From assembly GCA_046758325.1 (NCBI GenBank), contig JBHHZZ010000003.1, forward strand, positions 12,381 to 76,380: a DNA stretch of 64,000 bases, written 5' to 3'. Under the pieces are notes generated by a model. That model was not told the DNA's origin, did not search any database, and was given only the letters and a program-made list of their open reading frames with translations. Origin of the DNA: Thermoplasmata archaeon (GTDB lineage: Archaea > Thermoplasmatota > Thermoplasmata > RBG-16-68-12 > JAJISG01). Position numbers and translations under genes: made by a program. The first letter of the stretch is position 1, and every line of letters starts with the position of its first letter. This document shows positions 2,844 to 26,964 of this stretch, piece by piece.

Positions 2844-3296
2844 ATGATAGGCGACGATGGCCGGACGGTGATGGAGAAAGAGCTCAGGAGGCCTGTCGAG
2901 CACTTCCTCAAGGAGAGCGGGATGGAGGTTCTTCATGAGGTGTCTATCAACGGAAGAATAGCGGATGTCGTGGGAGTGTCGAAGGACCTCATCGCCATTG
3001 AGCTCAAGCTAACCGATTGGAGGAGGGGGCTAAGACAGGCCATGAGCTATCAGCTGGCCTGCGACCGCTCCTACCTATGCTTGCCCTTCCATGAAGCCCT
3101 TCGAATGACGTACAAGGCCCACTACTTCGAGAAGGAAGGTGTGGGAGTACTGGGATGCCTCCTCGACAGTGGAGAGGTCCGAGTGATCATCAGGGCCAGA
3201 CCCTCTCGGAGGCTCCTCCCGTTTCTCGCTGACTTCCTGAGGGATTCTCTTCTGGAGAAAGGCTGCCTGCGTCTAGGGAGCGACTTGAAGGATTAG
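2844..3296 (+). CDS. PD-(D/E)xK nuclease, Holliday junction resolvase Hjc-like
   Basis: The catalytic triad spacing matches archaeal Hjc: EKELRRPVEHFLKESGMEV (Glu), GRIADVVGV (Asp), LIAIELKLTD (Glu-x-Lys). This aligns to Hjc AERELIKLLEKHGF...VDLVA...CIEVK. The start was moved to the internal ATG at 2844 because the long N-extension looks non-coding. Confidence 0.5.
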   Translation: MIGDDGRTVMEKELRRPVEHFLKESGMEVLHEVSINGRIADVVGVSKDLIAIELKLTDWRRGLRQAMSYQLACDRSYLCLPFHEALRMTYKAHYFEKEGVGVLGCLLDSGEVRVIIRARPSRRLLPFLADFLRDSLLEKGCLRLGSDLKD

Positions 3297-3730
3297 ACGT
3301 CCTCGCTTTCCCGCTTGCTCATGTAGTGGATGTCCTCGTGGAGGCGGTATCCGTTGGATTGGAAGAACACGAGGGAGTCCTCGTTCCAGTCCTCCACCAA
3401 GGCGGCAATGATGCGCCTGCCTCGTCTCTGGAGGGCAGATTCCGCTTCTTGAAGAAGCCTGGTCCCGATGCCCCTCCCTCGATAGTCGGGGTCTACGGCC
3501 AGGCGGTTAATCCATCCCTTGCGCCCGTCATCGGTTCCCAGAACAGTGCCAACCAGTTCGCTGTCGATGTAGGCTCCTATCGCGAGGTCCGGATTGCTCC
3601 TCATCTCCTCTCGGAGAGCGGTGGGAAGGTCCCTGCCCTTCGGTCGATGGGGCAGCCTCGCGCTCCGCCACAAGGCGAGAATTCTCTCTGGATTCTCCTT
3701 ACTCAGTGACCGGATCACTACATCTTTCAT
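3293..3730 (-). CDS. GNAT family N-acetyltransferase
   Basis: Acetyl-CoA binding motif (RLAVDPDYRGRGIGTRLLQEAE). Start chosen at MKDVVIRSL on the minus strand (ATG at 3730). Confidence 0.75.
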   Translation of the reverse strand: MKDVVIRSLSKENPERILALWRSARLPHRPKGRDLPTALREEMRSNPDLAIGAYIDSELVGTVLGTDDGRKGWINRLAVDPDYRGRGIGTRLLQEAESALQRRGRRIIAALVEDWNEDSLVFFQSNGYRLHEDIHYMSKRESEDV

Positions 3731-3843
3731 GCTGCTCACCGAGATCTTAAGGGGAACAGTCGTGGGAACAGTGGGGACGCAGCACAAAAAGTCTTGCCCC
3801 TGAGGCTGTTGACGCCCCAGCATATCCCTACCGGAAACTTGCC

Positions 3844-4836
3844 TTGCCAAGTCTGGTCGATAACAGACGATTGATCGACTGGGAAGCATTTTTTAGAGTC
3901 CCCATCTTTGGTGAGGCGGTGAACCGGAAAAAAGCCCTTCTCATGGCTGTCGTCGTCCTTGCTGGCTCAGTAGCGGGGGCAGGGACGTACTTAATCCTCC
4001 AATCGCTCTTCCTAAGGATCGCGCTGCCTTCCTTCCCGGGGGAGCTAGCGCTTTCCTTTCTCCAGCCCGATCCCTACAGTCGCATCATCGTAGAGGTGGA
4101 CTGGGTTTCTGGGCAGGATCCTGACGCGGCTGCCCTCGACACGCTGAAGAATAGGCTGATAACCTACACACATAAGGAGAAGGTTGACATCGTCCTCTCC
4201 GACACCATGGAGGTCGACATCACCCTTTTCAGCCCGAATGACCTCCACAGCGTCGAGACTTCCTACAGAGACTTCGACTCCGGAGGCGACACCCTGGTGT
4301 TATACGTAATGTATCTCCCAGGAAGCCTGGAGGACAGCGACAAGTCTCTGGCTGTGAGCTACCAGGGCGGCTCCTTAGCCGTCTTCAAGGAAGCCGTTGG
4401 GAGGGTGGCCAGGACAACCCGGACCGTGTCCGCGCAGGATGTGGAGACCTCCGCTCTGATACATGAGCTGGGCCATCTCTTCGGACTGGTGAACATCGTT
4501 TACCAGAGTGATCTGGACTACGAGGACCAGGAGCATCCATTCCACAGTACAAACAGGAGCTGCGTCATGTACTGGGCCATAGAGACCGGTCCTTTCCTCA
4601 CGGAGAAGCCACCGACGGATTTTGGGTCGGAGGCAAGCTACGACATCGCTAAGCTCAGGGAGGGAGGATATGAGACTTCCCCCAGTCGGTTGAGAGAGTC
4701 ATCCACGATGGCATCCTTCCTATCCCACGTGGTGGATGTCCGCATGCAGGTCGCCGAAGGGATGAGACCGATATTCTTATGTAGCGCCGGGAATCCTTTA
4801 GAAGGGGATCATGGCAACAGGCTTCGTGCTGATTAG
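3844..4836 (+). CDS. Membrane-anchored HEXXH zinc metalloprotease, archaemetzincin-like but divergent
   Basis: N-terminal TM anchor (LLMAVVVLAGSVAGAG) and an HELGHLFGL zinc-binding motif with a downstream CVMYW. The third metzincin His is replaced (GLVN). The true start may be the internal Met at about 3943. Confidence 0.55.
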   Translation: MPSLVDNRRLIDWEAFFRVPIFGEAVNRKKALLMAVVVLAGSVAGAGTYLILQSLFLRIALPSFPGELALSFLQPDPYSRIIVEVDWVSGQDPDAAALDTLKNRLITYTHKEKVDIVLSDTMEVDITLFSPNDLHSVETSYRDFDSGGDTLVLYVMYLPGSLEDSDKSLAVSYQGGSLAVFKEAVGRVARTTRTVSAQDVETSALIHELGHLFGLVNIVYQSDLDYEDQEHPFHSTNRSCVMYWAIETGPFLTEKPPTDFGSEASYDIAKLREGGYETSPSRLRESSTMASFLSHVVDVRMQVAEGMRPIFLCSAGNPLEGDHGNRLRAD

Positions 4837-5044
4837 CGTTGAACCTGGGACCGAGAGGGAGGTTTTCCAGGAGGTAATCAAGATCGACGAAGTTGTGGAC
4901 GTCCACCTTCTCTTCGGCGAGTACGACCTCATCGCCAGGGTTGAGGCGCAGGACTACGACGTAATCGGCGATATCGTCGTGAACAAGGTGAGGAAGATTC
5001 CCGGGGTTACGTCCACCAAGACCCTGGCAAAGATACAGCTTTAG
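4811..5044 (+). CDS. Stand-alone Lrp/AsnC ligand-binding (RAM) domain protein
   Basis: 77 aa with the beta-alpha-beta-beta-alpha-beta RAM signature (VLISVEPGTEREVFQEVIKIDEVVDVHLLFGEYDLIARVEA). There is no HTH domain. Confidence 0.7.
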   Translation: MATGFVLISVEPGTEREVFQEVIKIDEVVDVHLLFGEYDLIARVEAQDYDVIGDIVVNKVRKIPGVTSTKTLAKIQL

Positions 5045-5109
5045 TCGGCTCCGAGACCAAACCTTCATTCACCACGGGCGCTAGCTGTTACCCGCTTGGA
5101 AGAGGGCAC

Positions 5110-6321
5110 ATGAGGGAAGAGAAGGTTACTGTTGCCGTCCTATCGATTATGGTTTTTCTCATCCTGATGGGCGCGACCCTGCTGGCGCCCGTGCTGCCCT
5201 TCTACGCCAAGACTTTCGGGGCGAGCGAGTTCATGATTGGGCTGCTCATTTCGGGTTACTTTCTGGCCAGGGCTGTGTTTGACATCCCTGCGGGGGTCAT
5301 GGGGGACAGGAAAGGCCAGAAGAGGGTCATGGGCTATGGCCTGCTGCTCATCGCCACCTCCTCGGTCCTGGCGGGCCTCGCCTTCAACTACTGGCTCCTC
5401 CTGGCTGTGCGTGTGGCAGAGGGTGTCGGCTCAGCGATGTACGTGACCTCATCCTTGGCGCTTCTGGCCAAGGTGGCCCCTCAGCAGAAGAGGGGACAGT
5501 ACATGAGCTACTATGTCGCCGCCCTACTGGCTGGGGCGGTGTCGGGTCCGGCAGCGGGAGGGTACATAGCCATCTACCTGGGCCTAAGGGCTCCCTTCTT
5601 CTTCTACGCCTTGGTCGGGACCATTGCCCTCGTCCTGATGAAGGCCTTCCTGCCCGTGGAGGTCTCCAGGGGCGAGAGGATGAGCGTCTCCGTGAAGGAT
5701 GTCGGCCGCGTTCTCCGGAACCCATCCTTCTTGCTGGTCAACCTGGCCACGATGAGCGCCTTTTTCGTGCGTGGGGGCGTCAACCTGGTGATCTTTCCCC
5801 TCTGGTCCGCGGCAAGGTTCGGTTTCGACCCGGGCATCATCGGCCTCCTTCTCACCGTTGCCGCATTGTCGTCCATCGTCACCATGTTCCCTTCAGGGCA
5901 CCTGGCGGACCGCTACGGAAGGAAGGTCCCCTTCATGTCCAGCCTACTCCTGACGGCCGCCGTCCTCCCCTTCATCTTCTACTCAGACAGCTTCTCCACC
6001 CTCACCATGATGATGGTGATGTTCGGCCTGGCGATCGGTCTGCACGGACCGATGGCGGCGTGGGCTGCGGATCTGGCGCCTCCAGACAGCATGGGCATGA
6101 CCATGGGGCTCTACCGGACCCTGGGGGACATGGGGTGGGTGCTGGGCCCCCTCGTCCTGTCGTACGTGTCGGAGACCACGGGCCCCATCGCCACCAACGT
6201 CTGGCCCTTCCTGGTCGCATCCGTATGGGCGGCCTTCTTCGGCCTCCTGCTGATTCCTGCCAAGGACCCCGCCTCGGGAGCCGGACGCAAGGTACCAGTG
6301 CTGCCGGATGGCAAGGGCTAG
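5110..6321 (+). CDS. MFS transporter
   Basis: Twelve predicted TM segments and the MFS signature (GVMGDRKGQKRVM). The second half is duplicated in the same way (GHLADRYGRK). Confidence 0.8.
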   Translation: MREEKVTVAVLSIMVFLILMGATLLAPVLPFYAKTFGASEFMIGLLISGYFLARAVFDIPAGVMGDRKGQKRVMGYGLLLIATSSVLAGLAFNYWLLLAVRVAEGVGSAMYVTSSLALLAKVAPQQKRGQYMSYYVAALLAGAVSGPAAGGYIAIYLGLRAPFFFYALVGTIALVLMKAFLPVEVSRGERMSVSVKDVGRVLRNPSFLLVNLATMSAFFVRGGVNLVIFPLWSAARFGFDPGIIGLLLTVAALSSIVTMFPSGHLADRYGRKVPFMSSLLLTAAVLPFIFYSDSFSTLTMMMVMFGLAIGLHGPMAAWAADLAPPDSMGMTMGLYRTLGDMGWVLGPLVLSYVSETTGPIATNVWPFLVASVWAAFFGLLLIPAKDPASGAGRKVPVLPDGKG

Positions 6322-7337
6322 CTTGTGCTGAGGATGTGCTCCACGTACCCGAGCAGAGGAAGGTCCAGCATGGTCTTCAGACCCGGCTGGGCCCCGAGGA
6401 CCCGTGGGATCGCATTGACCACGGCGGCGATGGTAGCCTCGTCGCCCATGATACCGTCAGGGATCTCGACCTGCAGGCCAGGCTTCCCGTCGATGACGAC
6501 GACGTCCCGGGGCCTCTCGGCCCCCATGTACATCTCCAGCTCGAGGCGGATGACTTCCTTCCCTTTCACGTGAGCCACCCCGATCTGGCGGAGGCCTGCC
6601 ACTCTCCCCTCGGGAACGTTCAGATGTCGACTTGAGACCTCCTCCGGAGCCATCACCGGCTCGATGTCCACCTTCGTGGATGAGAGGTTCCAGCCGAAGG
6701 CCGCGCCTACCATGTCCAACGACTCATAGGTGCCCACGTGTCCCAGCCTTCCCTCCTTGACCATTGCCTCGAACTCCTCCTTCGTCAGGCCTGCTCCCAC
6801 CTTCCTCTGGAGGGGAAGCCTGCGCTTTGCGACGTCGACCACTCGGATGGCCTGGACACTATCCACCCGGGTGCACATGCTGCTCAGGGCAATCACCAGA
6901 GCGTCCATCACGAATCCCGGGTTAACGCCGGTTCCGAGGGCCGTGACCCCCTCCCTCCTAGCCGCCTGGTCGATCTCCTGGGCGAAGTGGCGATGGGACC
7001 TCCAGGGATAGGAGAGTTCCTCGCAGGTGGAGACGACGTTGCACCCGGCCAGGAAAGCCTCCGCCAGCTGAGGATGGGCTTCCCAGATGTAGGAGGTGGT
7101 GCAGTGGAGGAGCACATCTGCGTCTCCTCTCCTCACTGCCTCCCTCAGATCCCTCCTTACGGTTACGCCGACGTTCCCCTGCAAGCCGATGACATCTCCA
7201 ATGTCCCTCCCCACCTTGCCCTCATCGATGTCGACGGCCGCCACGATGTCAAGCCCGCGGGAGATGCACTCCCTGGCTAGCGCGGAGCCGATAGCTCCCA
7301 GACCGTATGCGACAACCCTGACATCCTCCCCCATCAC
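6318..7337 (-). CDS. NAD(P)-dependent amine / amino-acid dehydrogenase, DapB-N fold (2,4-diaminopentanoate dehydrogenase-like)
   Basis: N-terminal Rossmann motif VRVVAYGLGAIGSALA. Length of about 340 aa and overall architecture resemble Ord/AmDH4-type and DapB-like enzymes. Overlaps the upstream aminotransferase by 4 nt, so the two form an operon. Confidence 0.5.
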   Translation of the reverse strand: MMGEDVRVVAYGLGAIGSALARECISRGLDIVAAVDIDEGKVGRDIGDVIGLQGNVGVTVRRDLREAVRRGDADVLLHCTTSYIWEAHPQLAEAFLAGCNVVSTCEELSYPWRSHRHFAQEIDQAARREGVTALGTGVNPGFVMDALVIALSSMCTRVDSVQAIRVVDVAKRRLPLQRKVGAGLTKEEFEAMVKEGRLGHVGTYESLDMVGAAFGWNLSSTKVDIEPVMAPEEVSSRHLNVPEGRVAGLRQIGVAHVKGKEVIRLELEMYMGAERPRDVVVIDGKPGLQVEIPDGIMGDEATIAAVVNAIPRVLGAQPGLKTMLDLPLLGYVEHILSTS

Positions 7338-8698
7338 CGTCCCTCCTGGATGTCCTCGGCGACCTTCCCCATCGCCTTGAAGAGTCTGCTCACATCCTCC
7401 TCCGTGTGGGCGAAGGAGAGGCAGCCGCCGCCGTGCATCGTATACACACCCTCGTTGACGAGCCTAAGCTTGAGTTCCTCATCCCGCCGTCGGTGGTCGG
7501 TTCTGTAGTATACGTCCCTCGCGCTCCTGATCTCGACGCCCTCCTCGAGGGGAAAGTGGACCTGGAATAGGGATTCGATCCCAGTGCATACGACCTCCAC
7601 GCCATGGTTCCGGAAGGCGGCCTGAACCCCTTCGCGGACCCGCTTTCCGAGGCGGCCCAGCCTCTCGTAGCCACCCTCATGCTCCTCCAAATGCCTGAGG
7701 ACGATCGTCCCCGCCCTCATGCTCATGGGATTGCAGGAGAAGGTTCCACCCCCGATGGAGACCTTCAGTCCTTCTCGACCCTTTCCCCTTGGATTGGCGA
7801 GTGACATCGCCTCTTCTCTTCCGGCCACGGCCCCCACGGGCATGCCTCCCCCCAGCACCTTGCCGAGAGTGACCATGTCCGGAACCACGCCGTAGTACTC
7901 CTGGGCCCCGCCTAGACCCAGGCGGAAACCGGTGATGATCTCATCAAAGATTAGGAGGACATCCCTGGATTCCGTCTCTTCCCTCAGAGCCTTAAGGAAC
8001 TCTTCGTCGGCTGGAACGGCGCCCCCGGCCCCTAGGACAGGCTCAACGATGACTCCCGCCAGATCCTTTTCCCGTCGGATGGTATCGAGGGCCCCATCGA
8101 CGTCGTTGAAGGGAAAGGTCTTGACGACCCTCTCCAGGGAAGCGGGCATGCCGAGGGATTCAGGCTTCTCGAAGGGGCCGTGAACGGCCATGAGGAGGTC
8201 CGTGCAGAATCCGTGCCATCCTCCTTCCGCCTTGAGTATGACAGAGCGGCCTGTGTTGCCTCGAGCCAGCCGAACAGCGTACATGGTCGCTTCCGCACCG
8301 GTGTTGCAGAACTTCACGGCGTCGACGCAGGGCACGTGTCCCTGTACCATCTCCGCCAGCTCCACCTCCCACTCGTTCACTATCCCCCAGTGGACTCCTT
8401 CCTTCAGCTGCTCCCTTAGCGCCTCAAGGATGGCAGGATGACCGTGGCCAAGGATCAGGGCGAAATGACCCATCCAGTAGTCGATGTACTCGTTCCCGTC
8501 CACGTCCCAGATCCTGGATCCCCTGGCGGATTTGACGTAGAAGGGATAAGGGGGGAAGTACCGGAGACCGTGACAGACACCCCCAGGAATCACTGCCTCA
8601 CCCCTCTCAAAGAGGGCTTTCGACTTTGAGGTTCGAAGAAGGTATTTCCGATGCAGGTTCTCCAAATCGCCGACCTCCAGCGAGCATACGGAGACCAT
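7334..8698 (-). CDS. Class III (PLP) aminotransferase, glutamate-1-semialdehyde aminomutase-like
   Basis: N-terminal LFERGEAVIPGGV...RYFPPYPFYV...GSRIWDVDGNEYIDY is typical of the HemL/GSA-aminotransferase subgroup, and the PLP-lysine region is present. Confidence 0.75.
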   Translation of the reverse strand: MVSVCSLEVGDLENLHRKYLLRTSKSKALFERGEAVIPGGVCHGLRYFPPYPFYVKSARGSRIWDVDGNEYIDYWMGHFALILGHGHPAILEALREQLKEGVHWGIVNEWEVELAEMVQGHVPCVDAVKFCNTGAEATMYAVRLARGNTGRSVILKAEGGWHGFCTDLLMAVHGPFEKPESLGMPASLERVVKTFPFNDVDGALDTIRREKDLAGVIVEPVLGAGGAVPADEEFLKALREETESRDVLLIFDEIITGFRLGLGGAQEYYGVVPDMVTLGKVLGGGMPVGAVAGREEAMSLANPRGKGREGLKVSIGGGTFSCNPMSMRAGTIVLRHLEEHEGGYERLGRLGKRVREGVQAAFRNHGVEVVCTGIESLFQVHFPLEEGVEIRSARDVYYRTDHRRRDEELKLRLVNEGVYTMHGGGCLSFAHTEEDVSRLFKAMGKVAEDIQEGR

Positions 8699-8843
8699 CC
8701 AGGCCCTTAAATCTTCTTCAACCTCGAGGCGTTGACCGCCTGAGACGGCCAGGAGAAGGCTGAAGCTCTGCGGGAATGCGCTCCACTCCCATCAGCGCCC
8801 GCAGTAGGCTAAAGCTTAAGCTGGATGGAAGTCTCTTCGACTC

Positions 8844-9776
8844 GTGGCCTCCGAGAGGGTACTCGTGACGCCCCTGGATGTCGATGAGAACATCTATCTG
8901 ATCGATGTCATGATGTTCGGAGAACCCAACTTCGGTGGCGTTTACTTCATCGACGATGAGAGGAGGACCATCGTCGAGACGGGGACTTCTCATGACTACC
9001 CGAGGATTCTCTCAGCCTTGAAGCAACTGAACGTTGAGCCCTCGTCCGTACAGAATGTCATCGTCACCCACATACATCTGGACCACGCTGGCGGTGCCGG
9101 ATACCTCCTCGACTACCTGGAGAACGCGAAGGTTTACGTGCATGAGCGCGGGTTCCCTCATTTGGCCAGGCCAGAGCGTCTCCTGGAGAGCGCGTCCCGG
9201 GCCCTGGGAGAGGCTTTCAAGGACTACGGCACTCTGAAGCCCATGCCCGAAACCAGGATGGTCGCCTTGAGAGGTGGGGAGGTCCTGGACCTCGGTGGCA
9301 GGGAGCTGGAGTTCATCTACACTCCGGGCCACGCAAGGCACCACCTCTGCGTCCTGGACAGAAGCACCCGCAGCCTCTTCGCTGGGGATGCAGCCGGCAT
9401 ATACTTCCCCGAGGATGAGAGGTTGATACCAACGACCCCCTTCCCGGAGTTCGACCTTCCCAGGGCCATTGAGACGATGAGGACAGTGGCCAGGCTGAAC
9501 CCCAAGGCGCTGCTGTACACGCACTTCGGTCCCCGGCAGGATGCCCAGAAAGCGTTGAGGAATCAGCAGGCGGAGTACGAGAGGTGGGGGCGCCAGTCGA
9601 AGGAGCTGTTGGATGCGGGCGACTTGGGGGAGGCGGTGAGGACTGTGTATGAGGGGTGGTACGCTGACGTCGGAGGATTCCCGAGGCCCTTTGTAGAGAG
9701 AGTCATCGAGACCAATCTAAGGGGATTCCAGAAGTTCTTCCAGAGAACGAGGGAACATGCTTCCGGAACCCGTTAG
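8844..9776 (+). CDS. MBL-fold metallo-hydrolase
   Basis: HxHxDH motif (VIVTHIHLDHAGGAGYL) plus downstream His/Asp ligands (YTPGHARHH). Confidence 0.8.
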   Translation: MASERVLVTPLDVDENIYLIDVMMFGEPNFGGVYFIDDERRTIVETGTSHDYPRILSALKQLNVEPSSVQNVIVTHIHLDHAGGAGYLLDYLENAKVYVHERGFPHLARPERLLESASRALGEAFKDYGTLKPMPETRMVALRGGEVLDLGGRELEFIYTPGHARHHLCVLDRSTRSLFAGDAAGIYFPEDERLIPTTPFPEFDLPRAIETMRTVARLNPKALLYTHFGPRQDAQKALRNQQAEYERWGRQSKELLDAGDLGEAVRTVYEGWYADVGGFPRPFVERVIETNLRGFQKFFQRTREHASGTR

Positions 9777-10623
9777 GAGACTCGCAGAGGAGATAGCCTC
9801 GGATACGCGATCCGGTGCCCTTCCTCTTGCACAGAAGGCCCTGGAGGCATACAGCCTACTGGGTCAGCTTTCCGGGAACGAAACTTCCGCTCGCGAGCTT
9901 CACGGACTTCTGAGGATGGCCCAACCTTGGATGGCCGCCGTGGTCAACGCAGCGCAGATGGGATGGGAGCTTGCCCGATCTGCGAGATGGGGAGGACTGC
10001 CCGGGCTGAAGGAGCGGTTGGCCGATGCAAGGCAGTTGGTGGCCCGCGAGGCCATCGGTATCCTCACGGAGTGCAAAACGGTGGTGACCGTCAGCTATAG
10101 CAGCGATGTCTTCGAGGCCCTGCGAAGACGTCAGGAAACCGGTTCCGCATTTGAGGTGTATGTCTGCGAATCCAGGCCTCTGAATGAAGGCGTTGCCTTG
10201 GCAAGGGACTTGAAAGATGTGGGTGTCAGGGCGACCCTGGTGGTCGATGCGGCTGGGCCCAGCCTAGTGGCCCGGTCGGATGCCGTCATCACTGGGGTCG
10301 ATTCCCTCCTGCGTGAAGGCAGTCTAATCAACAAGATAGGGACGATGTCCCTAGCACTGACCTGCTCTGAGTTCAGCGTTCCCTTCTATCCCATCATGGA
10401 GGTCCTCAAGGTCGAGGTGGAAGGCCATGAGATATCTCCGGTCGAGAAGTCCAGGGACCCGGGGGAGGTGAGCGAGGACCTGGAGGCGTTAAACTTCTAC
10501 TTCGAGAGGGTGCCGTCGAGACTCGCCACATCTCTGGTGACGGATGCGGGCATCCTGAAGGTGTCGTCCTTACTGAACCGCTTTCGGCGGCCGGAGGACC
10601 TCCTGAGCTTCTACTTGCCATGA
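9757..10623 (+). CDS. IF-2B family protein (eIF-2B alpha/beta/delta-related; ribose-1,5-bisphosphate / methylthioribose-1-phosphate isomerase family)
   Basis: PF01008-like core (VVTVSYSSDVFEALRRRQETGSAFEVYVCESRPLNEGVALARDL...ITGVDSLLREGSLINKIGT). Shorter (288 aa) than characterised isomerases. Overlaps the MBL gene by 20 nt. Confidence 0.6.
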   Translation: MLPEPVRRLAEEIASDTRSGALPLAQKALEAYSLLGQLSGNETSARELHGLLRMAQPWMAAVVNAAQMGWELARSARWGGLPGLKERLADARQLVAREAIGILTECKTVVTVSYSSDVFEALRRRQETGSAFEVYVCESRPLNEGVALARDLKDVGVRATLVVDAAGPSLVARSDAVITGVDSLLREGSLINKIGTMSLALTCSEFSVPFYPIMEVLKVEVEGHEISPVEKSRDPGEVSEDLEALNFYFERVPSRLATSLVTDAGILKVSSLLNRFRRPEDLLSFYLP

Positions 10624-10649
10624 GAGCAAGCTCTCCACATACGTTATCC

Positions 10650-11009
10650 CTACTTGCCGTAGATGGAGATGCGGTTGCCTTCTGTATCCATGAGTTCTGC
10701 CAGCCTCTCCCCAGTGTGAGGGTTTATGACCTCGGGCTCTCGGGTAAGGGTAACCCCCTTGGTCTTGAGCTCCCTGTAAGCCTCTTCCACATCGTCAACC
10801 CTGAAGACCACCCTCATACCTTCATTTTTGCTTCTGTCCTCTGGGGAGAGATTACTCTCGTGCAGGCCGATCCACACCCCCTCAGTGGCTAGCTCTGACC
10901 AGCCCTCGGATTCGAATTTCAGGGGAATGCCGAGGGTCTGCGTGTAGAACTTGATGGCGCGGCTCATATCACTCACGAAGACAACGACGTGGTCAACCTT
11001 CTTGAGCAT
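10650..11009 (-). CDS. VOC / glyoxalase family protein
   Basis: MLKKVDHVVVFVSDMSRAIKFYTQTLGI matches the glyoxalase/bleomycin-resistance fold. 119 aa. Confidence 0.75.
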   Translation of the reverse strand: MLKKVDHVVVFVSDMSRAIKFYTQTLGIPLKFESEGWSELATEGVWIGLHESNLSPEDRSKNEGMRVVFRVDDVEEAYRELKTKGVTLTREPEVINPHTGERLAELMDTEGNRISIYGK

Positions 11010-11068
11010 GTCTACATTAGGTTGGTGGTCCGTTTACCCTTTTGGTAGACGGGGCTCCCCGTGAGACG

Positions 11069-12436
11069 CTAGAACTCTGTTACGCCCGTGAACCTGAAGT
11101 TTTCGATTTTCACAGGAGGTACGGTGGATGCTCCCACACCCAGCCAGCTAGAGTAGCGGTGGGGCTCTCTCTCTTTGCCTATCAGCGTGGCCTCTGCAAA
11201 GGCCTCCATCAGGCCCTGAGTGAACCTCAGGTTCTTGACGGCCCCTCTGATCTCCCCATTCTCTATGAGGAAAGTGCCATCCCTAGTCATGCCGGTTATC
11301 AGGGCCTTCGGGGCATCAATAGGGTTAGTGTAGTGGAACCTGGTGACGTAGATCCCCCGCTTTGTCTCCGCCACCATCTCATCTTCGCTCGAGTCCCCCG
11401 TCTCCAGGAAAGTGTTCATGGCTAGCGGACCAATCGGGTTCGGCGGTAGCAAGGCATGACCCGTTGTCTTCTTGCCCTCTCGCCCCGCTGTGTAGGAGTC
11501 GTAGACGACGCCCCTGGCAACTCCGCTCTCCAAGAGAAGGACCCTCTTCTTGGGTACCCCCTCCCCGTCGAAAGGCACGGGAACGCCCTCTGGTCTCGTC
11601 CCCTCGTCCCAGAGAGTGATGGACTCCCCCGTGACCTTCTGCCCGAGATTGCCACTCACGTAGGACCTCCCCTCCTGGTAGGCAATGGCTCCGAAGGTGA
11701 TAGAGGCTAGGGACTGGACCATGTCGGCGACAGCGTTGCTCTCCAAGACCACGGTGTACTCCCCCGGCTCGATGGCCTTGGCACCGATGGATCCCGCCGC
11801 CTTCTCCGCGGCCCTTTCTGCCATGCGTCGGTGATCAAGCTTCGAGATGTCCACCTTCAGATCCTCGCCCCAACCGTAGCCCTTCTCTCCGTTCGCTTCC
11901 TTGATGGCTGTCACCACCAGATGGCCCAGCGTCAAGCTGTTGTGCGCCCTGATTCCCAGGGAGTTGGACACCGTGATGGAACGCGTGGCCGCCTCCAGGG
12001 CCCCGAAGGCTTTTTCGACCCCCTGAGAGGAAACTATGGAGACGATGTCCTCCACCACCTTCGCCCTCTCCTCGGGCGTGGACCCGTCCGTCTTGGCAGA
12101 GAAGTTGGGGACATCCTCGCTCCCCTCATCTTCCGGGAGGGAGACGAATTCCTTGTTGGGCTTCTGGGCACGCGCCATCTTGCCCGCCCTCTCGATGGAT
12201 TCCTTTATGGAGGCCTCGTCGGTCCTGTTGGTCCTGACGATGCCTATCTGCTTGTCGTAGACCAGTCGGAGTATGAGAACAGTATCGGACGTGGCCACGT
12301 TCTGGTGGATGATGGAATTGGCGTACCTGGTGAGGGAGGTCTTGGTACTCAGGAGGATGGCTTCCGTCTGGTCGGCTGGGCTGAGGTCCAGAACCCTGTC
12401 GACTATGTCGAAGGCCTCTGACCTGGCTGGCGCCAT
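11069..12436 (-). CDS. pmbA: PmbA/TldE-family metalloprotease modulator (pair 1)
   Basis: TldD/PmbA family architecture without the HExxxH. Immediately downstream of, and abutting, the TldD gene. Confidence 0.75.
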   Translation of the reverse strand: MAPARSEAFDIVDRVLDLSPADQTEAILLSTKTSLTRYANSIIHQNVATSDTVLILRLVYDKQIGIVRTNRTDEASIKESIERAGKMARAQKPNKEFVSLPEDEGSEDVPNFSAKTDGSTPEERAKVVEDIVSIVSSQGVEKAFGALEAATRSITVSNSLGIRAHNSLTLGHLVVTAIKEANGEKGYGWGEDLKVDISKLDHRRMAERAAEKAAGSIGAKAIEPGEYTVVLESNAVADMVQSLASITFGAIAYQEGRSYVSGNLGQKVTGESITLWDEGTRPEGVPVPFDGEGVPKKRVLLLESGVARGVVYDSYTAGREGKKTTGHALLPPNPIGPLAMNTFLETGDSSEDEMVAETKRGIYVTRFHYTNPIDAPKALITGMTRDGTFLIENGEIRGAVKNLRFTQGLMEAFAEATLIGKEREPHRYSSWLGVGASTVPPVKIENFRFTGVTEF

Positions 12437-13876
12437 CTAGGCCACCCCCACCCGAACCCCTCTGAACCGAGCTGGGGAGGTGCCGTGGCCGACGCGGGCC
12501 ACCTGACCCGGCTCCCCCTTACCACAGTTGGGGACCCCCCATAGGTGCCAGCGGTCCTCGTCACAGACGGCGTCACAACCCCTCCAGAACTCGTAGGTGA
12601 TGCCCGTGTAGTTCGGGTACTTGATGAGTTCCCCGAGCTCACCGCCCACAATCTCCCAGGCCACCTCCGTCGCAAACTGAAAGTTCAGGCGCAGGTCGTC
12701 GATGGACCAGGACTTGTTCGTCTCCATATATATGCCTTCGTCGGTGTCCTCCACCAGCTCGTCGAGGTCCCAATCCCCCGGGAGGAGGCTGATGTTGGTC
12801 ATCCTGATGAGGGGTATCCTGCCCCAGCCGTCGGCCCGCATATTGCCACTGGTCTCGTGTCCGAACAACTCCGCGGTTTCCCGGGAGTTCTGGTAGCCCA
12901 CGAAGATTCCTTCTCTGACGAGGTCAACCCGCTTTGCGGGAACGCCCTCGTCGTCGTACCCGAAGGTACCCAGGCCGCCTTCCACCATGGAGTCGGCCAC
13001 GATGTTGACCTTTTCAGACCCGTACCTGAAGGAGTCCAGCTTGTCAGGCGTCAGGAAGGAGGTTCCAGCGTAGCTGGCTTCCATTCCCAGGACCCTGTCA
13101 AGCTCCGTCGGGTGGCCGCAGGACTCATGGACCTGCAATGCCAGCTGGTTCGTGCCGATGATGACGTCCCTCTTCCCTGATGGGCACTTCTTCGCGTCTA
13201 GCAGGGCAACGGCCTCCCGGGCCGTCCTCTCCGCATTCCCCACCAGATCCATGGACTCGATGAACTCCCACCCCGCTGTCCTGAAGTTTCCTCCGAAGGG
13301 GGCCGGATAGGACCTCTTGTGTACCTCGCCACTCCGCAGCGCCAGGACTTCTATGCCGGCTCCCGACTGCAGGATGTCCTGCTCGATGTAGGAGCCCTCA
13401 CTGGACGCAAAAGTCTTCCTCTCCCTGAAGGCCTGGAACTGAGCCTTTCGGACCTTTATGGCCTCGTCCTTACTCGGGGTTCTCTGGGCATCCATCAGCA
13501 GCTCCATCTTCTCCTCCAGAGGCACATCCCACGGATCCATCCGGAAGGCGGACCTGTAGCTGCCCTCCTTGGACCCTACCTCCGCGAGGCTTACCTCCTC
13601 CCTCCTCACCCGGGCGGAAGCCCTGGCGATTCGGACGGCCTCCTCGGCGACTCTCCTGATTTCCCCGTTCTCCATCCCCGACGAGGAGGAGAAACCCCAT
13701 GAGCCGTCTGCCAAGGCTCGGACGCCGAAGCCTCCGCTCACGTTCTCCGTCAAGCTCTCCACGTTGTCATTCTTGACGATGATGGCGCTCAGTCGTCTCT
13801 CAACCAGCCTTATGTCGACGTAGCTAGCCCCTGCCTTGAGGGCGGTTTCAATCGCCATGTCGCAGGTCTCCCTCAT
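12437..13876 (-). CDS. tldD: TldD metalloprotease (pair 1)
   Basis: Conserved HESCGHPTELDRVLG zinc-binding motif and GxC motifs. 479 aa. Confidence 0.85.
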   Translation of the reverse strand: MRETCDMAIETALKAGASYVDIRLVERRLSAIIVKNDNVESLTENVSGGFGVRALADGSWGFSSSSGMENGEIRRVAEEAVRIARASARVRREEVSLAEVGSKEGSYRSAFRMDPWDVPLEEKMELLMDAQRTPSKDEAIKVRKAQFQAFRERKTFASSEGSYIEQDILQSGAGIEVLALRSGEVHKRSYPAPFGGNFRTAGWEFIESMDLVGNAERTAREAVALLDAKKCPSGKRDVIIGTNQLALQVHESCGHPTELDRVLGMEASYAGTSFLTPDKLDSFRYGSEKVNIVADSMVEGGLGTFGYDDEGVPAKRVDLVREGIFVGYQNSRETAELFGHETSGNMRADGWGRIPLIRMTNISLLPGDWDLDELVEDTDEGIYMETNKSWSIDDLRLNFQFATEVAWEIVGGELGELIKYPNYTGITYEFWRGCDAVCDEDRWHLWGVPNCGKGEPGQVARVGHGTSPARFRGVRVGVA

Positions 13877-13926: not shown

Positions 13927-14895
13927 CTAGATGTGGACTTCTGTGCCAAAACCCGACTTCCGGGCTATCTCATAGGCCACGGATGCGGTCGCCGCGTCCT
14001 CGAAGGCCATGCCGACAGACCTGAACAGAGTGATGTCGTCCTTGCTCATCCTTCCCGTCTTCATGCCGGCTACCAGCTCCCCCAGCTCGGCATAGATGTC
14101 GTCGGGCGAGAAGGCGCCCCGGTCGATGGCTTCCCCGAGGTCACGGGCCTCGTTCAACACACCCTCCTTGGAGTCCACCACTACCCTCGACCTTCGGTAG
14201 GTCTCAGCATCGAGTTCGCGCACCACGCCCCCTCCTATGGAGTTGACGTGAACACCCGGCTCGAGCCACTCTCCCTGAAGTACCGGGCTCCGGGAGTTGG
14301 TGGCTGTGACCACCACGTCGCTCCCGCGAACGACCTCCTCAGCCCCGTCTGCCACTAGGGCCTCCACATCGAGCGTGTCCACGAGTTCCTTACAGAAGCT
14401 CCTGAGGTTCTCCCGATTTCTGCTGTACGCCTTGACCAGCTGAACGTCGCGGACAGTCCAGAGGCCAAGGATCTGGGTCCGAGCCTGGGTCCCTGTTCCT
14501 ATTATTCCCACGATCTGGGCATCCACTAGTGAGAGGGATCTTGCCGCCAGGGCGCTCGCAGCTCCCGTCCGCATGGCGGTTACGTACCTCCCATCCATCA
14601 AGCATAGGGGGTCACCACTTCCGCTGTCCAGTAGGAGGATTGCACCGGTTATGGAAGGAAGGCCTTTCTCGCGATTCCCGGGAAAATCGGAGACCACTTT
14701 GACCGCTAGAGACCTCATACCCCCGAGGTACGCTGCCATGACGAAGGTATTCCCCTCCTCGCCGATGGGCGTCATGACCCTCATTGGCATGGAGACGGTG
14801 CCCCGGGCGTGCTCTACGAAACCCCGCTCCACCGCGTCGATAACGGTGCGCATGTCCAGAAACTCCTCCAAGTCCCTCTGGCTTAGGACGAGCAT
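13927..14895 (-). CDS. Ornithine cyclodeaminase / mu-crystallin family protein (may be an archaeal alanine dehydrogenase-type enzyme)
   Basis: The OCD_Mu_crystallin fold runs through the whole sequence (MLVLSQRDLEEFLDMRTVIDAVERGF...). Rossmann motif GIIGTGTQA. Start chosen at Met35 of the long ORF. Confidence 0.75.
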   Translation of the reverse strand: MLVLSQRDLEEFLDMRTVIDAVERGFVEHARGTVSMPMRVMTPIGEEGNTFVMAAYLGGMRSLAVKVVSDFPGNREKGLPSITGAILLLDSGSGDPLCLMDGRYVTAMRTGAASALAARSLSLVDAQIVGIIGTGTQARTQILGLWTVRDVQLVKAYSRNRENLRSFCKELVDTLDVEALVADGAEEVVRGSDVVVTATNSRSPVLQGEWLEPGVHVNSIGGGVVRELDAETYRRSRVVVDSKEGVLNEARDLGEAIDRGAFSPDDIYAELGELVAGMKTGRMSKDDITLFRSVGMAFEDAATASVAYEIARKSGFGTEVHI

Positions 14896-14946
14896 GTATC
14901 CCCACGTATATTGGCGCCCCTCAAAAACGCTTGGCCGGCTGACGCA

Positions 14947-14955
14947 CTTATTTAA
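14947..14955 (+). promoter_or_regulatory. Putative TATA box (TTATTTAAG) upstream of mrpA
   Basis: An AT-rich octamer about 45 bp upstream of the GTG start of mrpA, in an otherwise GC-rich intergenic region. Confidence 0.3.
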
Positions 14956-15000
14956 GAGGCTCCGCGATTGTCCTGAAAAGTCCCCAGCAGGTAGCATGGA

Positions 15001-17277
15001 GTGGTGGCGGTGGAGCAGGGAGCCTGGCTGTTACTGGCTTTAGGACTACCCTTTCTGTCCGCGCTTCTCTCGCCCCTCCTTGAGAGGCTGAGGCCCAACC
15101 TGGCCGCGATTTTTGGATCAGCCGTCGGCGCAGTCTCCTTCCTCACTCTTCTCGCGGTTTGGACCGTGGGAGGAGCGGAGAGGGTAGCCTACCCCTGGAT
15201 TCCCTCCGCTGCCATCTCCTTCATCCTTCGGCTCGACGGATTGGCGTTCTTATTCGCCCTCCTCATAACGGGAATCGGATCCCTGATCCTCGCCTACTCC
15301 CACAGCTACATGGCTCAGGAGAAGGGGAAACCCCGTTTCTACGCCTACATGTCCCTCTTCATGGGCTCAATGCTCGGCCTGGTCCTGGCAGGCGACCTCA
15401 TCCTTCTGTTCCTCTTCTGGGAGCTTACTACCCTGAGCTCCTTCCTTCTCATAGGCTTTCGGAGGGAGGAGAGGCGGTCGGTCCTCGCAGCCCTCAAGGC
15501 CCTCCTGATAACCGGGACTGGGGGCCTGGTCCTTCTTCTGTCCTTTCTGATGATGAGGGCCGCCGTGGGTTCCTTTGACCTGGAAGTCGTGCTGCAATCC
15601 GGCGACGTCCTCAGATCCAGCGCCCTGTTCCCTCTCATCCTGATCCTCTTCCTGGTAGCGGTGGCCGCCAAGTCCGCCCAGTTCCCGCTGCACATCTGGC
15701 TCCCCGATGCAATGGTAGCTCCCACGCCGGTGAGCGCGTACCTCCACTCCGCCGCCATGGTGAAGGCTGGCATATTCCTCCTGGCGCGCTTCCTGCCAGG
15801 CCTGATTTCGGTGGAGTGGGAGATGGCGCTCATTCCCCTAGGGACGGCGACCATGATCATAGGGGCGCTCCAGGCAATCCGGTCTGTGGAACTCAAGAGG
15901 ATACTTGCGTACAGCACGATCAGTCAGCTGGGCCTTCTAGCCTCCGTCTTCGGAATGGCCACCCTAACAGGTCAGGAGGCAGGGCTGTTTCACCTGCTGA
16001 ATCACGCTCTCTTCAAGGCCTCCCTCTTCCTGGTGGCCGGGGCGATTACCCTAGCCACGGGCTTCACGAATATCCGAGAGCTGGGCGGGCTCCGCAGGAG
16101 GATGCCTGTCACGGCCATCGCCTGCGGCCTCGCCGCCTTCTCTATGGCTGGCATCCCTCCACTGGGTGGCTTCCTCAGCAAGGAAACTTACTACGAGGCC
16201 GCCCTCCAGAGCGGCTATCTCTGGGCTCCCATCCTGGCGGTCCTAGGAGGGGGCCTCACCTTCGCTTACAGCCTCTACTTCTTCACGAGGATATTCCTAG
16301 GGAAAGGAGGTGGAACCAAGTCCCAGGAGCCCCTTTCTCTCGCGATTCCAGCGCTGATTCTGGCAGCGTTAACCCTCGTCCTCGGTATCATGCCCACCTT
16401 GGCCTCGGGGCTCGTATCCGCCTCTACATCTCCAGAGAACATCTTCGCCCCGGGCCTTCTTCGGGGCCCCATCACCACGGCCCTAATGAGCCTCTCCTCT
16501 GCCGTCGTGGGAATTCTGATCCTCTGGAGGTACGAGGCTGTCGCCTCCTTCCTTGATAGGGTTGCCACCACGCTGGGACGGATAACCCCCGACGCCGTGT
16601 ACGAAGGCTTCATCGGAGCTGCCCGCCGTTCCTGTGCTACCTTCGGTCTCATGGTTCAGAACGGGTCCCTCAGGAGATATACAGCTGTCCTGATCCTCTT
16701 CGTGCTGGCCGCCCTCATGTGGCCCTTATCCCTACCGGTGCTGGAGATTCCCGCCGTAGAGGACACCAGCGGCATCGTCCTTGCCATCATTCTGTCGGCC
16801 ATGGTGGTCTTCTCCTCCCTGGCAGCAGGACTGAAGGACACCCTCCATGCCATCCTCAGCCTCTCGGGCATGGGCTTCCTCCTCGCCATGACCTTCATGC
16901 TCCTCAATGCCCCGGACCTGGCCATGACCCAGATCCTCGTGGAAATGGTCTTCCTGGTGATCTTTCTGATAGTACTCCACAAGATTCCTTTCAAGGCCAT
17001 CCGTCCATCGAGGCCGCGAGGCTCTGTGGACCTTCTCATGGGGATCTTCATGGCCCTGGGGGTCGCCTACCTGGTTGCCCTCTCCATCGCGGCCTTCTCT
17101 CAATCGGTGGCCACATACTACCTGGACCCCAGCCTTCTGGACTTGACAGGCGGGAGGAACGTCGTCAATGTCGTCGTCACCGACTTCAGGGCCTTCGACA
17201 CCCTCGGCGAGATCACCGTCATAGGCCTGGCGTCCTTGGCCGTGTACACCCTCCTCCGGAGGTGGAAGGCTGACTAG
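15001..17277 (+). CDS. mrpA: Mrp antiporter subunit A (MnhA/MrpA, NuoL-like, with fused MrpB-like C-terminal domain)
   Basis: 758 aa polytopic protein with NuoL/ND5 antiporter-like motifs (WLPDAMVAPTPVSAYLHSAAMVKAG). GTG start. First gene of a seven-gene, overlapping mrpA-G array. Confidence 0.85.
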   Translation: MVAVEQGAWLLLALGLPFLSALLSPLLERLRPNLAAIFGSAVGAVSFLTLLAVWTVGGAERVAYPWIPSAAISFILRLDGLAFLFALLITGIGSLILAYSHSYMAQEKGKPRFYAYMSLFMGSMLGLVLAGDLILLFLFWELTTLSSFLLIGFRREERRSVLAALKALLITGTGGLVLLLSFLMMRAAVGSFDLEVVLQSGDVLRSSALFPLILILFLVAVAAKSAQFPLHIWLPDAMVAPTPVSAYLHSAAMVKAGIFLLARFLPGLISVEWEMALIPLGTATMIIGALQAIRSVELKRILAYSTISQLGLLASVFGMATLTGQEAGLFHLLNHALFKASLFLVAGAITLATGFTNIRELGGLRRRMPVTAIACGLAAFSMAGIPPLGGFLSKETYYEAALQSGYLWAPILAVLGGGLTFAYSLYFFTRIFLGKGGGTKSQEPLSLAIPALILAALTLVLGIMPTLASGLVSASTSPENIFAPGLLRGPITTALMSLSSAVVGILILWRYEAVASFLDRVATTLGRITPDAVYEGFIGAARRSCATFGLMVQNGSLRRYTAVLILFVLAALMWPLSLPVLEIPAVEDTSGIVLAIILSAMVVFSSLAAGLKDTLHAILSLSGMGFLLAMTFMLLNAPDLAMTQILVEMVFLVIFLIVLHKIPFKAIRPSRPRGSVDLLMGIFMALGVAYLVALSIAAFSQSVATYYLDPSLLDLTGGRNVVNVVVTDFRAFDTLGEITVIGLASLAVYTLLRRWKAD

Positions 17278-17290
17278 CGCAGTTGCCCGG

Positions 17291-17695
17291 GTGATCACCA
17301 ACATCGTCCTCTACATCGGCATCCTCTTCTCCCTCACCTTGCTCGTGGCAGGGCACAACGAACCCGGCGGTGGCTTCGTGGCCGGAGCTATGACAGCTAG
17401 CGTCTTTGCGCTTCTCTACCTCGTATTCGGGAAGGACTACGTGGAATCCAGGTTCCAGACGGACTACAGGTCCATCACAGCCGCGGGGCTCCTCGTCACG
17501 ATTTTCTTCGCCCTGATGCCCATGGCCCTGGGGGAGCCGGTTCTTTCCAGCATTCTGTTCACGTTGGACGTACCCCTGGTAGGTCAGATTGAGCTCGGCT
17601 CCGCCGTGGGGTTTGACTTCGGGATCTACCTCGTCGTGGTTGGCTCCGTTCTGACCATCCTGAGAAGGAGCGCGGGGGGTGAAGAACCTGGTTAG
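17291..17695 (+). CDS. mrpB: Mrp antiporter subunit B
   Basis: 134 aa, four TM segments, MnhB-like (GHNEPGGGFVAGAM). Its position follows mrpA. Confidence 0.75.
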   Translation: MITNIVLYIGILFSLTLLVAGHNEPGGGFVAGAMTASVFALLYLVFGKDYVESRFQTDYRSITAAGLLVTIFFALMPMALGEPVLSSILFTLDVPLVGQIELGSAVGFDFGIYLVVVGSVLTILRRSAGGEEPG

Positions 17696-25836: not shown

Positions 25837-25923
25837 AACCTCTCATTTGAAAGAAACCTTCCCGTGGGCTTCCTCATGTCCTACCCCCTGTCATGGTGAA
25901 GGTTCCTGAGGTGTCGCTAGGTC

Positions 25924-26763: not shown

Positions 26764-26964
26764 CTCTCTGTCCTCCCCACGCGGCGGAGGATGAGATGGG
26801 ATGGCTAAACACTTTCCCCTGGCCGCGAGGCATCTTCCCGGGGATGAGTGCCGGGCGCTGGCGATTGCATACCAGGGACGAGGAAAAACCCGAGGGAGGC
26901 GTCCCAGGTGCCTGCTTGGGTCCAGGGAAACCCTCACGCCGACGACCAGGCAGAACAGCTCCCA

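Follow-up and report, generated by a model that had tools for sequence, protein, structure and literature searches.

The native amine dehydrogenases (nat-AmDHs) were divided into groups G1 to G5 in a 2024 survey (Elisee et al. 2024, PMC11164908). G2 contains the true 2,4-diaminopentanoate (2,4-DAP) dehydrogenases of ornithine fermentation (Ord), and is the only group for which a consensus genomic context was found. G1, with 1,427 models, keeps the catalytic Glu at pocket position P3, the Arg at P9 and the His at P15, and has Arg at P12 in place of the Phe that contacts the 2,4-DAP methyl group. Docking, virtual screening of 1,090 amines, NetSyn analysis and activity screens did not reveal its native substrate, which was reported as unknown; in the screens most G1 proteins proved insoluble when made in E. 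coli. Beta-lysine, diaminopimelate and 2,6-diamino-5-hydroxyhexanoate were not accepted by the G1 enzymes tested, and a few G1 enzymes showed weak activity on 2-amino-4-oxopentanoate (PMC11164908 and supplements). Here we discuss a G1 gene and the class III aminotransferase (AT) gene that lies next to it in a 64,000-nucleotide stretch of DNA from a Thermoplasmata metagenome-assembled genome (MAG), contig JBHHZZ010000003.1, to which we refer as the window. We find that the two genes form a genuine and evolutionarily conserved two-gene unit.

Both protein families, and the orphan status of G1, are already known. What appears to be new is the recurrent AT-G1 partnership, together with links to 5-oxoproline and D-glutamate-cyclase-like genes: we found no paper describing these, and literature searches on the AT-G1 gene pair, on the dehydrogenase structure 7XDU and on D-glutamate dehydrogenase gave nothing relevant. 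An earlier note on this DNA had proposed that the two genes work together in a pathway that it could not recognise, and on both counts we agree, as the pair is conserved and we found no described pathway to which it belongs.

Placement of the two enzymes

By sequence the solved proteins nearest to the dehydrogenase are 7XDU (E 2.7e-71), AmDH4 (6G1M/6G1H, E about 1e-53), MsmeAmDH, CfusAmDH and MATOUAmDH2. Its AlphaFold2 model (pLDDT 92.9) has TM-scores of 0.94 to 7XDU and 0.87-0.93 to AmDH4, and in Foldseek comparisons it gives 0.85-0.94 against all solved nat-AmDHs but only about 0.5 against DapB proper and meso-diaminopimelate dehydrogenase, with an rmsd of 7-9 Å to the DapB structures. A Pfam search gave no match to the DapB_C domain. 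The top NCBIfam match is the Ord model NF040740 with 291.6 bits, under the equivalog cut-off of 400.

The pocket residues are E106/R165/R172/R173/K179/H200/D299, which is the full G1 signature and is present in 91 of 93 homologues. E102, R161 and F168 of AmDH4 align to E106, R165 and R172, so that the dehydrogenase has the P3 Glu, P9 Arg and P15 His of G1, with Arg rather than Phe at P12, and the spacing of E106, R165 and R172 is that of the published G1 model E1QRK4 (E103, R162, R169). Because the signature is complete and the spacing identical, the protein is a G1 nat-AmDH, and is neither DapB nor a canonical 2,4-DAP dehydrogenase. The earlier note had described it as having a DapB fold of the 2,4-DAP dehydrogenase or native AmDH type, of which the native AmDH part stands; the protein is not DapB proper, and the G1 pocket and the Ord score below cut-off set it apart from the canonical 2,4-DAP dehydrogenases.

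In relation to the published G1 proteins (Vulcanisaeta distributa E1QRK4, D2RES1, B9KZJ1) fold, pocket signature and spacing are the same and nothing structural differs, the novelty being in the partner genes, namely the AT and the PxpABC and PF14336 genes discussed below. With the Ord/G2 enzymes (AmDH4 of Petrotoga mobilis, 6G1M, and TtherAmDH, 7XDU) the window protein shares the fold (TM-score 0.87-0.94), the catalytic Glu, the carboxylate-binding Arg and His, and the acidic residue after beta-2. However it has R172/R173/Q177/R178/K179 and D299 where G2 has F168/G169/M173/E174/T175 (T or E at the last of these) and Gly. The acidic residue is Asp36, at the end of beta-2, and as an acidic residue after this strand is the family's rule for NADH (PMC11164908), we predict from Asp36 that the enzyme is of the NAD(H) type.

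The AT has to be compared with glutamate-1-semialdehyde aminomutase (GSAM, the product of hemL), in which Ser29, Arg32 and Glu406 are the substrate-binding residues; enzymes of the GSAM type handle a diamino intermediate (PMC7338781). The comparison was made with an AT-seeded metagenome sample of 80 loci, of which 37 have a true HemL and 43 a non-HemL AT. The earlier note was right in calling the AT a class III enzyme resembling GSAM, and GSAM models are its top NCBIfam matches, both sub-threshold (TIGR00713, 364.0 against 527.3 bits; NF000818, 369.4 against 398). It is 40% identical to T. thermophilus HemL, a value of 46-58% being found for the true HemLs of the sample, and it shares with HemL the class III fold-type I subgroup, the catalytic Lys, the Asp that binds pyridoxal phosphate (PLP) and the equivalent of Arg32. 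The catalytic K280 (GKVLGGG) and the PLP-N1 residue D252 (FDEI) are invariant across 20 homologues. The substrate loop differs: it reads PGGVCHGLRYF (H43-G-L-R46) where HemL has PGGVNSPVRAF, so that His-Gly-Leu replaces Ser29-Pro30-Val31 and of the three substrate-binding residues the Arg alone is retained, for the Glu406 region is HGGGC rather than FEAAF and has no acidic residue. The same division runs through the sample, all 37 true HemLs having the loop PGGVNSPVRAF and a C-terminal FE(A/T)xF motif, and the 43 non-HemL ATs a loop of the form x-His/Tyr-x-x-Arg and no acidic residue at the Glu406 position. On these residues we class the AT as a class III, fold-type I PLP enzyme of the GSAM-like subgroup, in a non-HemL clade that we call the His43 clade.

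The glutamate of GSAM disfavours alpha-keto acids, and its loss suggests that the AT is an ordinary transaminase able to take a keto-dicarboxylate. The nearest characterised non-HemL relative is the Sphaerobacter thermophilus omega-transaminase StoTA (6K8H), followed by ForI, the beta-phenylalanine transaminases and D-phenylglycine aminotransferase. StoTA, the beta-amino-acid transaminases 2YKU and 4AO9 and D-phenylglycine aminotransferase 2CY8 match with E values of 1e-70 to 1e-54, and show that this subgroup contains genuine transaminases for non-alpha or D-configured amines. The relation is a distant one, and no genomic pairing with an amine dehydrogenase has been described for them.

The AT might still be a true GSAM-type aminomutase, with the dehydrogenase acting on the same C5 4-amino/4-oxo skeleton (glutamate-1-semialdehyde, 4,5-dioxovalerate, 4,5-diaminovalerate or 5-aminolevulinate) in a side route into or out of 5-aminolevulinate. 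The rank of the GSAM models would fit this, as would the position of the ATs of L082 and L168, 50% identical to that of the window, at 1-4 kb from hemE, hemH and hemY-like genes. We nevertheless think it very improbable, as the HemL loop and Glu406 are not conserved in the AT, the immediate neighbours in L082 and L168 are transporter, isochorismatase, opine dehydrogenase and ornithine cyclodeaminase (OCD) genes rather than haem genes, and neither the window nor the flanks of any AT-G1 pair contain tetrapyrrole genes. The earlier note had itself named an AT that is HemL in a tetrapyrrole context as the case that would tell against its proposal, and that is not what we find; the AT gene is the only GSAM-like gene in the window.

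The 50%-identical ATs (L082, L168, L086, L087 and L092) form a subclade of their own with 1-4 kb between AT and the haem genes mentioned. In the ATs of L082 and L168 the loop Arg is replaced by His, and in L168:780-11019 and L082:1988-9296 the AT is accompanied by an isochorismatase-family gene, a PF14336 gene and a transporter (Opp-type ABC or TAXI-TRAP). We considered whether this subclade is HemL and rejected it, on the absence of the HemL loop and on immediate neighbours that are isochorismatase, transporter, PF14336, opine dehydrogenase and OCD genes.

Another proposal is that two ordinary housekeeping genes have come to lie together by chance, a hemL serving tetrapyrrole synthesis and a dapB serving lysine synthesis, as the source annotations 'glutamate-1-semialdehyde 2,1-aminomutase' and 'dihydrodipicolinate reductase' would have it. 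In an NCBI Thermoplasmata MAG, proteins identical to both are encoded by neighbouring genes and carry the labels 'dihydrodipicolinate reductase' (MFQ5837448.1) and 'aspartate aminotransferase family protein' (MFQ5837449.1). This proposal is hardly conceivable, as both proteins are under the family cut-offs, the TM-score is about 0.5 to DapB but 0.94 to a native AmDH, the residues that define HemL are absent, and none of the 37 true HemL loci has an AmDH gene.

A recurrent aminotransferase-dehydrogenase pair

Some 20 loci, drawn from five or more phylum-level groups, have adjacent genes of the AT clade and of G1, and stop/start overlap is frequent. In a search seeded with the dehydrogenase, for which 80 genome loci were fetched, an AT gene lies beside G1 in two Methanomassiliicoccales MAGs, in one MAG each of Bathyarchaeia, Dehalococcoidia and Haloferacaceae, and on the plasmid NZ_CP119993.1 of Halomarina halobia PSR21 (L078). 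In these 80 loci AT was the only neighbour cluster to occur across at least four phylum-level groups, and it lies at a median distance of 12 nt from G1, the other recurrent G1 neighbours each being limited to one lineage.

The pairs of the window's own clade are those of L001, L002, L104, L171 and L172, to which at least 11 candidate same-contig protein pairs can be added. Sister AT clades have the pair in L083 and L164-L167: all four of the nearest-outgroup AT members that were looked up (L164-L167) adjoin a DAP_DH_C gene, as does that of L083, and on an Asgard contig there is a DAP_DH_C gene 4.9 kb from the AT gene. Further pairs are of haloarchaeal type (L017, L078, L100), or come from Bathyarchaeia (L012), Dehalococcoidia (L007) and metagenomes (L111, L113, L151). 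The order of the genes is AT then dehydrogenase in the window clade, in haloarchaea, in L012 and in L111, and dehydrogenase then AT in L007, L083, L164-L166 and L151; the genes are convergent in L113 and divergent in L167. Several pairs have a 4-nt overlap. The full G1 signature is carried by 17 of 18 AT-linked dehydrogenases, the exception being that of L147.

The AT-seeded sample gives a comparison with true hemL genes, as an AmDH gene adjoins 6 of the 43 non-HemL ATs and none of the 37 HemLs (p = 0.02); five of the six are G1-type and L147 is not. If genes for PF14336 proteins are counted with the AmDH genes, the figures become 11 of 43 and 0 of 37 (p = 5e-4). In both trees, that of the non-HemL ATs and that of G1, paired members are dispersed among unpaired sisters; these are rough neighbour-joining trees and we use them for scatter alone and not for topology. 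It is because the pairs are scattered, and the gene orders vary, that we see in them a long-standing functional partnership, as shared ancestry of one locus would not give this pattern. The study of genome-context conservation that the earlier note had advised supports its proposal of a unit, with adjacency recurring across phyla.

No third partner common across phyla was found by Pfam searches of the neighbours of the pairs, of 81 neighbours of unpaired non-HemL ATs and of 120 immediate G1 neighbours; the haloarchaeal neighbour reading frames gave no Pfam matches, probably as a result of crude gene calling in high-GC DNA. What else recurs around G1 is synteny within single lineages: in Bathyarchaeia a GltD-like Fe-S flavoprotein gene and MoaE, in Acidobacteriota HIBADH-like, M1 peptidase and LPG-synthase-like genes.

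Two of these loci have other features of interest. L147 (5978-14278) has a non-HemL AT with a nat-AmDH that is not G1 (pocket Y/S/M/K/M/M), adjoined by a radical SAM gene and a Liv-type amino-acid ABC transporter, and from this locus the AT-AmDH partnership may extend beyond G1. In L012, directly downstream of the Bathyarchaeia pair (9419-11099), there are genes for an LD-carboxypeptidase, of peptidoglycan tetrapeptide recycling, and for a protein of the proline racemase family, and farther along a second, fragmented class III AT gene.

Proposed substrate and mechanism

The first clue to the substrate is in the pocket, where Arg172, Arg173 and Lys179 of the dehydrogenase occupy the sites at which true Ord contacts the methyl group of 2,4-DAP and neighbouring parts of the molecule. 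Since the residues on the methyl side of Ord are replaced by Arg, Arg and Lys, the G1 pocket is predicted to take a more anionic substrate. The characterised G2 member AmDH4 acts on 4-aminopentanoate, and 4-aminopentanoate with its methyl group exchanged for a carboxylate is glutamate, from which by analogy the substrate of G1 would be glutamate-like. If the geometry of (S)-4-aminopentanoate is kept while the carboxylate takes the place of the methyl group, then by Cahn-Ingold-Prelog bookkeeping the product of the exchange would be D-glutamate.

The second clue is in other partner genes. In five loci of Bathyarchaeia type (L010, L028, L051, L063, L067) G1 is followed on the same strand, after a gap of 64-75 nt, by LamB_YcsF, CT_C_D and CT_A_B genes, and G1 is the first gene of what looks like an operon (for example L051:7986-11532). 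These three are PxpA, PxpB and PxpC, the prokaryotic 5-oxoprolinase (PMC13274462). In L068 (9061-9984) and L006 (4047-5021) the place of the Pxp genes directly downstream of G1 is taken by a gene for a D-glutamate-cyclase-like PF14336 (DUF4392) protein. PF14336 genes are also found directly upstream of non-HemL ATs, in L116, L117, L124 (5406-6971, with a 4-nt overlap), L128 and L140, and near the related ATs of L082 and L168. The PF14336-linked ATs are, in the neighbour-joining tree, sisters of the G1-linked ATs of L007 and L151, and we found no description of a PF14336-AT gene pair in the literature. The one PF14336/DUF4392 protein to have been characterised is the mouse D-glutamate cyclase (PMC5339696). 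The G1-Pxp loci have in addition a GltD-like Fe-S flavoprotein gene and an HdrA/MvhD-like gene divergent upstream, and MoaE downstream.

With these clues we suggest, with a probability of roughly 0.4, that the AT-G1 pair is an NAD-linked transdeamination or stereo-inversion couple for a glutamate-like acidic amino/keto acid. In such a couple the two enzymes would share one acidic amino/keto-acid pair. The AT, in which Arg46, the GSAM arginine for the distal carboxylate, is kept and the glutamate that excludes alpha-keto acids lost, would most likely pass an amino group between its primary substrate and an acidic C5 keto acid resembling 2-oxoglutarate. The G1 enzyme, keeping the carboxylate site of Ord (Arg165, His200) and the catalytic Glu106, would oxidatively deaminate the glutamate-like amino-dicarboxylate to give ammonium and NADH and regenerate the keto acid. 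The net effect would be transdeamination, or D-to-L inversion if the stereochemistry of AT and G1 is opposite, and the role would be in amino-acid scavenging by a peptide-degrading archaeon, which is in keeping with a window rich in peptidase and amino-acid catabolism genes. In all this we infer the shared substrate, the reaction direction and the stereochemistry.

There are known systems of this kind, as a transaminase coupled to glutamate dehydrogenase carries out transdeamination, and DauA and DauB of Pseudomonas bring about racemisation with two enzymes. The logic proposed here is the same, with the amino group passing by way of a keto acid and an NAD(P)-dependent dehydrogenase, but the protein families are entirely different and the likeness would be one of functional analogy.

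Several points weigh against such a couple. No enzyme of the AT clade or of G1 has been assayed on glutamate or 2-oxoglutarate, and the nearest characterised relative of the AT, 6K8H, uses beta- and gamma-amino acids, including 4-aminopentanoate, with pyruvate and not glutamate. The weak activity of a few G1 enzymes on 2-amino-4-oxopentanoate (PMC11164908) is not what one would expect, and the invariant Asp299 of G1 is not explained by a glutamate-like substrate. About 74 of the 80 G1 genome loci have no adjacent AT, and in the published NetSyn analysis no consensus context emerged for G1 (PMC11164908). Only in one lineage, the Bathyarchaeia-type loci, is G1 linked to Pxp and PF14336 genes, so that these links may in part be synteny, and a catalytic role for the PF14336 domain itself is not established. 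Finally, the trees have no support values.

A more specific version is that the G1 enzymes are the missing NAD-dependent D-glutamate dehydrogenases, forming with the His43-clade AT a module for transdeamination or D-to-L inversion of D-amino acids. The reasons are that the nat-AmDHs are (S)-selective and that the exchange of methyl for carboxylate gives D-glutamate. By this account D-amino acids derived from peptidoglycan would be consumed with this module in sediment archaea (Thermoplasmata, Bathyarchaeia, haloarchaea, Asgard) as well as in many bacteria, and PF14336 proteins and 5-oxoprolinase would be alternative partners at the same metabolic node. Taken as a whole this version is unlikely.

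The earlier note had favoured a diamine or omega-amino-acid route of the ornithine or lysine type. In its fullest form this is a diamino-acid route (ornithine, lysine or 2,4-DAP type) in which the dehydrogenase oxidises the internal amine and the AT removes the other. There is something to be said for it: the family was founded on 2,4-DAP dehydrogenase, Ord is the best NCBIfam match, GSAM-type enzymes handle a diamino intermediate, two G1 enzymes (A0A540X1D9 and MGYP001132756558) formed amine from 2-amino-4-oxopentanoate, and the invariant Asp299 could hold a second amino group. The charge of the pocket is however reversed in relation to true Ord (F to R, G to R, E to R/K, T/E to K), the Ord score is 291.6 where 400 is required, and the published negative results on beta-lysine, diaminopimelate and 2,6-diamino-5-hydroxyhexanoate speak against it. 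Nor are the expected genes nearby: neither the window nor the neighbourhood of any pair has a gene for D-ornithine aminomutase, thiolase or racemase, and oraSE, ortAB and orr are absent both from the annotated window reading frames and from the surroundings of every pair. We regard such a route as unlikely, and the evidence as a whole points away from ornithine and lysine and toward a glutamate-like dicarboxylate.

The pair could also work in the opposite direction, in biosynthesis, with reductive amination of a keto-acid or keto-diacid by the dehydrogenase and addition or shift of a second amino group by the AT, to give a non-proteinogenic amino acid (an osmolyte or cofactor precursor) for export by the major facilitator superfamily (MFS) protein encoded next to it. 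The characterised native AmDHs are indeed reported in the direction of reductive amination, GSAM-like ATs occur in several biosynthetic pathways, GntE and ForI being examples, and an efflux-type MFS gene adjoins the pair in the Thermoplasmata clade. However a preference for NAD(H) over NADPH, as predicted here, speaks for catabolism, as do the genes in the surroundings, which are catabolic. Neither a third conserved partner nor any other biosynthetic gene accompanies the pair, and the MFS gene is lineage-specific, all of which makes a biosynthetic pair quite improbable.

The Thermoplasmata locus and the annotation of the pair

The features of the locus are given in Table 1. All four of the reading frames from which the earlier note had built its unit are present (RAM, MFS, dehydrogenase and AT).

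Table 1. Features of the AT-dehydrogenase locus in the window
Feature	Coordinates	Strand	Remarks
RAM protein	4811-5044	+	77 aa; PF01037, E 1.1e-15
MFS transporter	5110-6321	+	PF07690, E 3.8e-59
Dehydrogenase (G1 nat-AmDH)	6318-7337	-	339 aa; PF19328 DAP_DH_C, E 1.3e-40; second gene of operon
Aminotransferase (AT), class III	7334-8698	-	454 aa; PF00202, E 1.2e-59; first gene of operon
AT / MBL-IF-2B divergent intergenic region	8699-8843		145 nt, read from the sequence
Metallo-beta-lactamase (MBL)-fold hydrolase	8844-9776	+	Pfam and NCBIfam matches
IF-2B/MtnA-family protein	9757-10623	+	Pfam and NCBIfam matches; overlaps MBL gene by 20 nt
OCD/mu-crystallin family protein	13927-14997	-	PF02423, E 3.5e-74

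The junction of AT stop and dehydrogenase start reads cgGTGATGggg. The 4-nt overlap given in the earlier note applies if the dehydrogenase starts at GTG 7337; with ATG 7334, the start chosen by NCBI, the overlap is 1 nt (TGATG). As read from this junction the two genes are translationally coupled with either start. The stop codons of the convergent MFS and dehydrogenase genes share CTAG.

The start of the AT gene is probably not the annotated ATG 8698 but the in-frame TTG 8665, 11 codons inside it. The reasons are that a Shine-Dalgarno-like GGAGGT (8679-8674) lies inside the annotated frame ahead of the TTG, that a TATA-like ATTTAAG (8712-8706, minus strand) is just 8-14 nt upstream of the ATG and crowds it, and that the homologues, at 443-445 aa, agree with the TTG in length and at their N-termini. 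For the divergent intergenic region upstream we infer a promoter function.

Several neighbouring genes (MFS, RAM, OCD, MBL and IF-2B) accompany the pair in Thermoplasmata relatives, including some whose dehydrogenases are down to 59-66% identical to that of the window. The MFS gene is kept in L001, L104, L171 and L172, where the dehydrogenases are 59-71% identical to that of the window, and was found beside none of the pairs examined outside the Thermoplasmata clade. The RAM gene, 65 nt upstream of the MFS gene, is present in L001, L104 and L172 and absent in L171. The OCD gene lies upstream of the operon, with 5.2 kb between it and the 5' end of the AT gene, rather than 6 kb downstream as the earlier note had it; its synteny extends to L001, L002 and L172, and in a search of all loci, about 170 in number, with hidden Markov models the only other case was L168. 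The OCD-family protein is under every NCBIfam equivalog cut-off. The MBL/IF-2B pair is divergent from the AT gene in every Thermoplasmata relative examined (L001, L002, L171, L172), and the two proteins are far under any NCBIfam equivalog cut-off.

The earlier note had tied the MFS, RAM and OCD genes to the unit. Distant relatives and the searches of all loci show them to be confined, as companions of the pair, to the Thermoplasmata clade, with RAM missing even there in L171, and we do not count them among the members of the module: the conserved core is the AT and G1 pair only. One exception is L168, where an OCD-family gene, a gene for an opine dehydrogenase and an Opp-type transporter flank a related AT, and from this locus there may be an occasional link of the AT clade with other C-N oxidoreductases.

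The RAM protein has PF01037 (residues 6-72) as its only Pfam match and aligns solely with the C-terminal halves of full-length Lrp/AsnC models, in agreement with its earlier description as an Lrp ligand-binding domain with no helix-turn-helix ahead of the MFS gene. It matches over its full length the stand-alone RAM proteins of 75-83 aa (2ZBC, 2E1A/2Z4P 'DM1', 2CVI, 2DJW; E 2e-15 to 4e-12), with no difference detected, and judged by this match is an ordinary member of that known family. That it acts as a sensor is pure conjecture.

Upstream of it there is a reading frame (3844-4836, 330 aa) with a weak zincin-like match and 59% identity in L001, which shares 46 nt with the 5' end of a GNAT gene on the other strand (3293-3889) and 26 nt with the start of the RAM gene. 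It runs in the same direction as RAM and MFS and is probably a real gene. Beyond the AT gene the window has two separate pairs of TldD/PmbA-type metallopeptidase genes (11069-13876 and 59137-61876), TldD/PmbA being absent in L172. A multi-subunit Mrp-type cation/proton antiporter cluster with large MrpA/D-like subunits (15001-20261) adjoins the OCD gene, and does so in L172 also. Genes for 2-oxoacid dehydrogenase E2 and E3, urocanase, an M20 peptidase and an amidohydrolase are found at 39969-42601, 61924-63573 and 24658-26937, and there is also a class I aminotransferase gene. The window has a G+C content of 59%. Since it holds 2-oxoacid dehydrogenase, urocanase, peptidase and amidohydrolase genes, the host looks, as far as gene content can tell, like a heterotroph degrading amino acids and peptides rather than an obvious methanogen.

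With regard to annotation, homologues are found in Acidobacteriota, Chloroflexota, Bathyarchaeia and Thermoplasmata, and the labels given by pipelines, 'dihydrodipicolinate reductase' for the dehydrogenase and 'HemL / aspartate aminotransferase family' for the AT, distort the reconstruction of lysine and haem pathways in MAGs. The AT partner, taken with the 5-oxoprolinase and D-glutamate-cyclase-like links, narrows the question of the G1 substrate to the glutamate enantiomers, 2-oxoglutarate and close dicarboxylates. If the version with D-glutamate is true, then G1 would represent a new enzyme activity and the pair a route for recycling of D-amino acids in uncultured archaea, and the family would provide a natural D-amino-acid dehydrogenase scaffold for biocatalysis.

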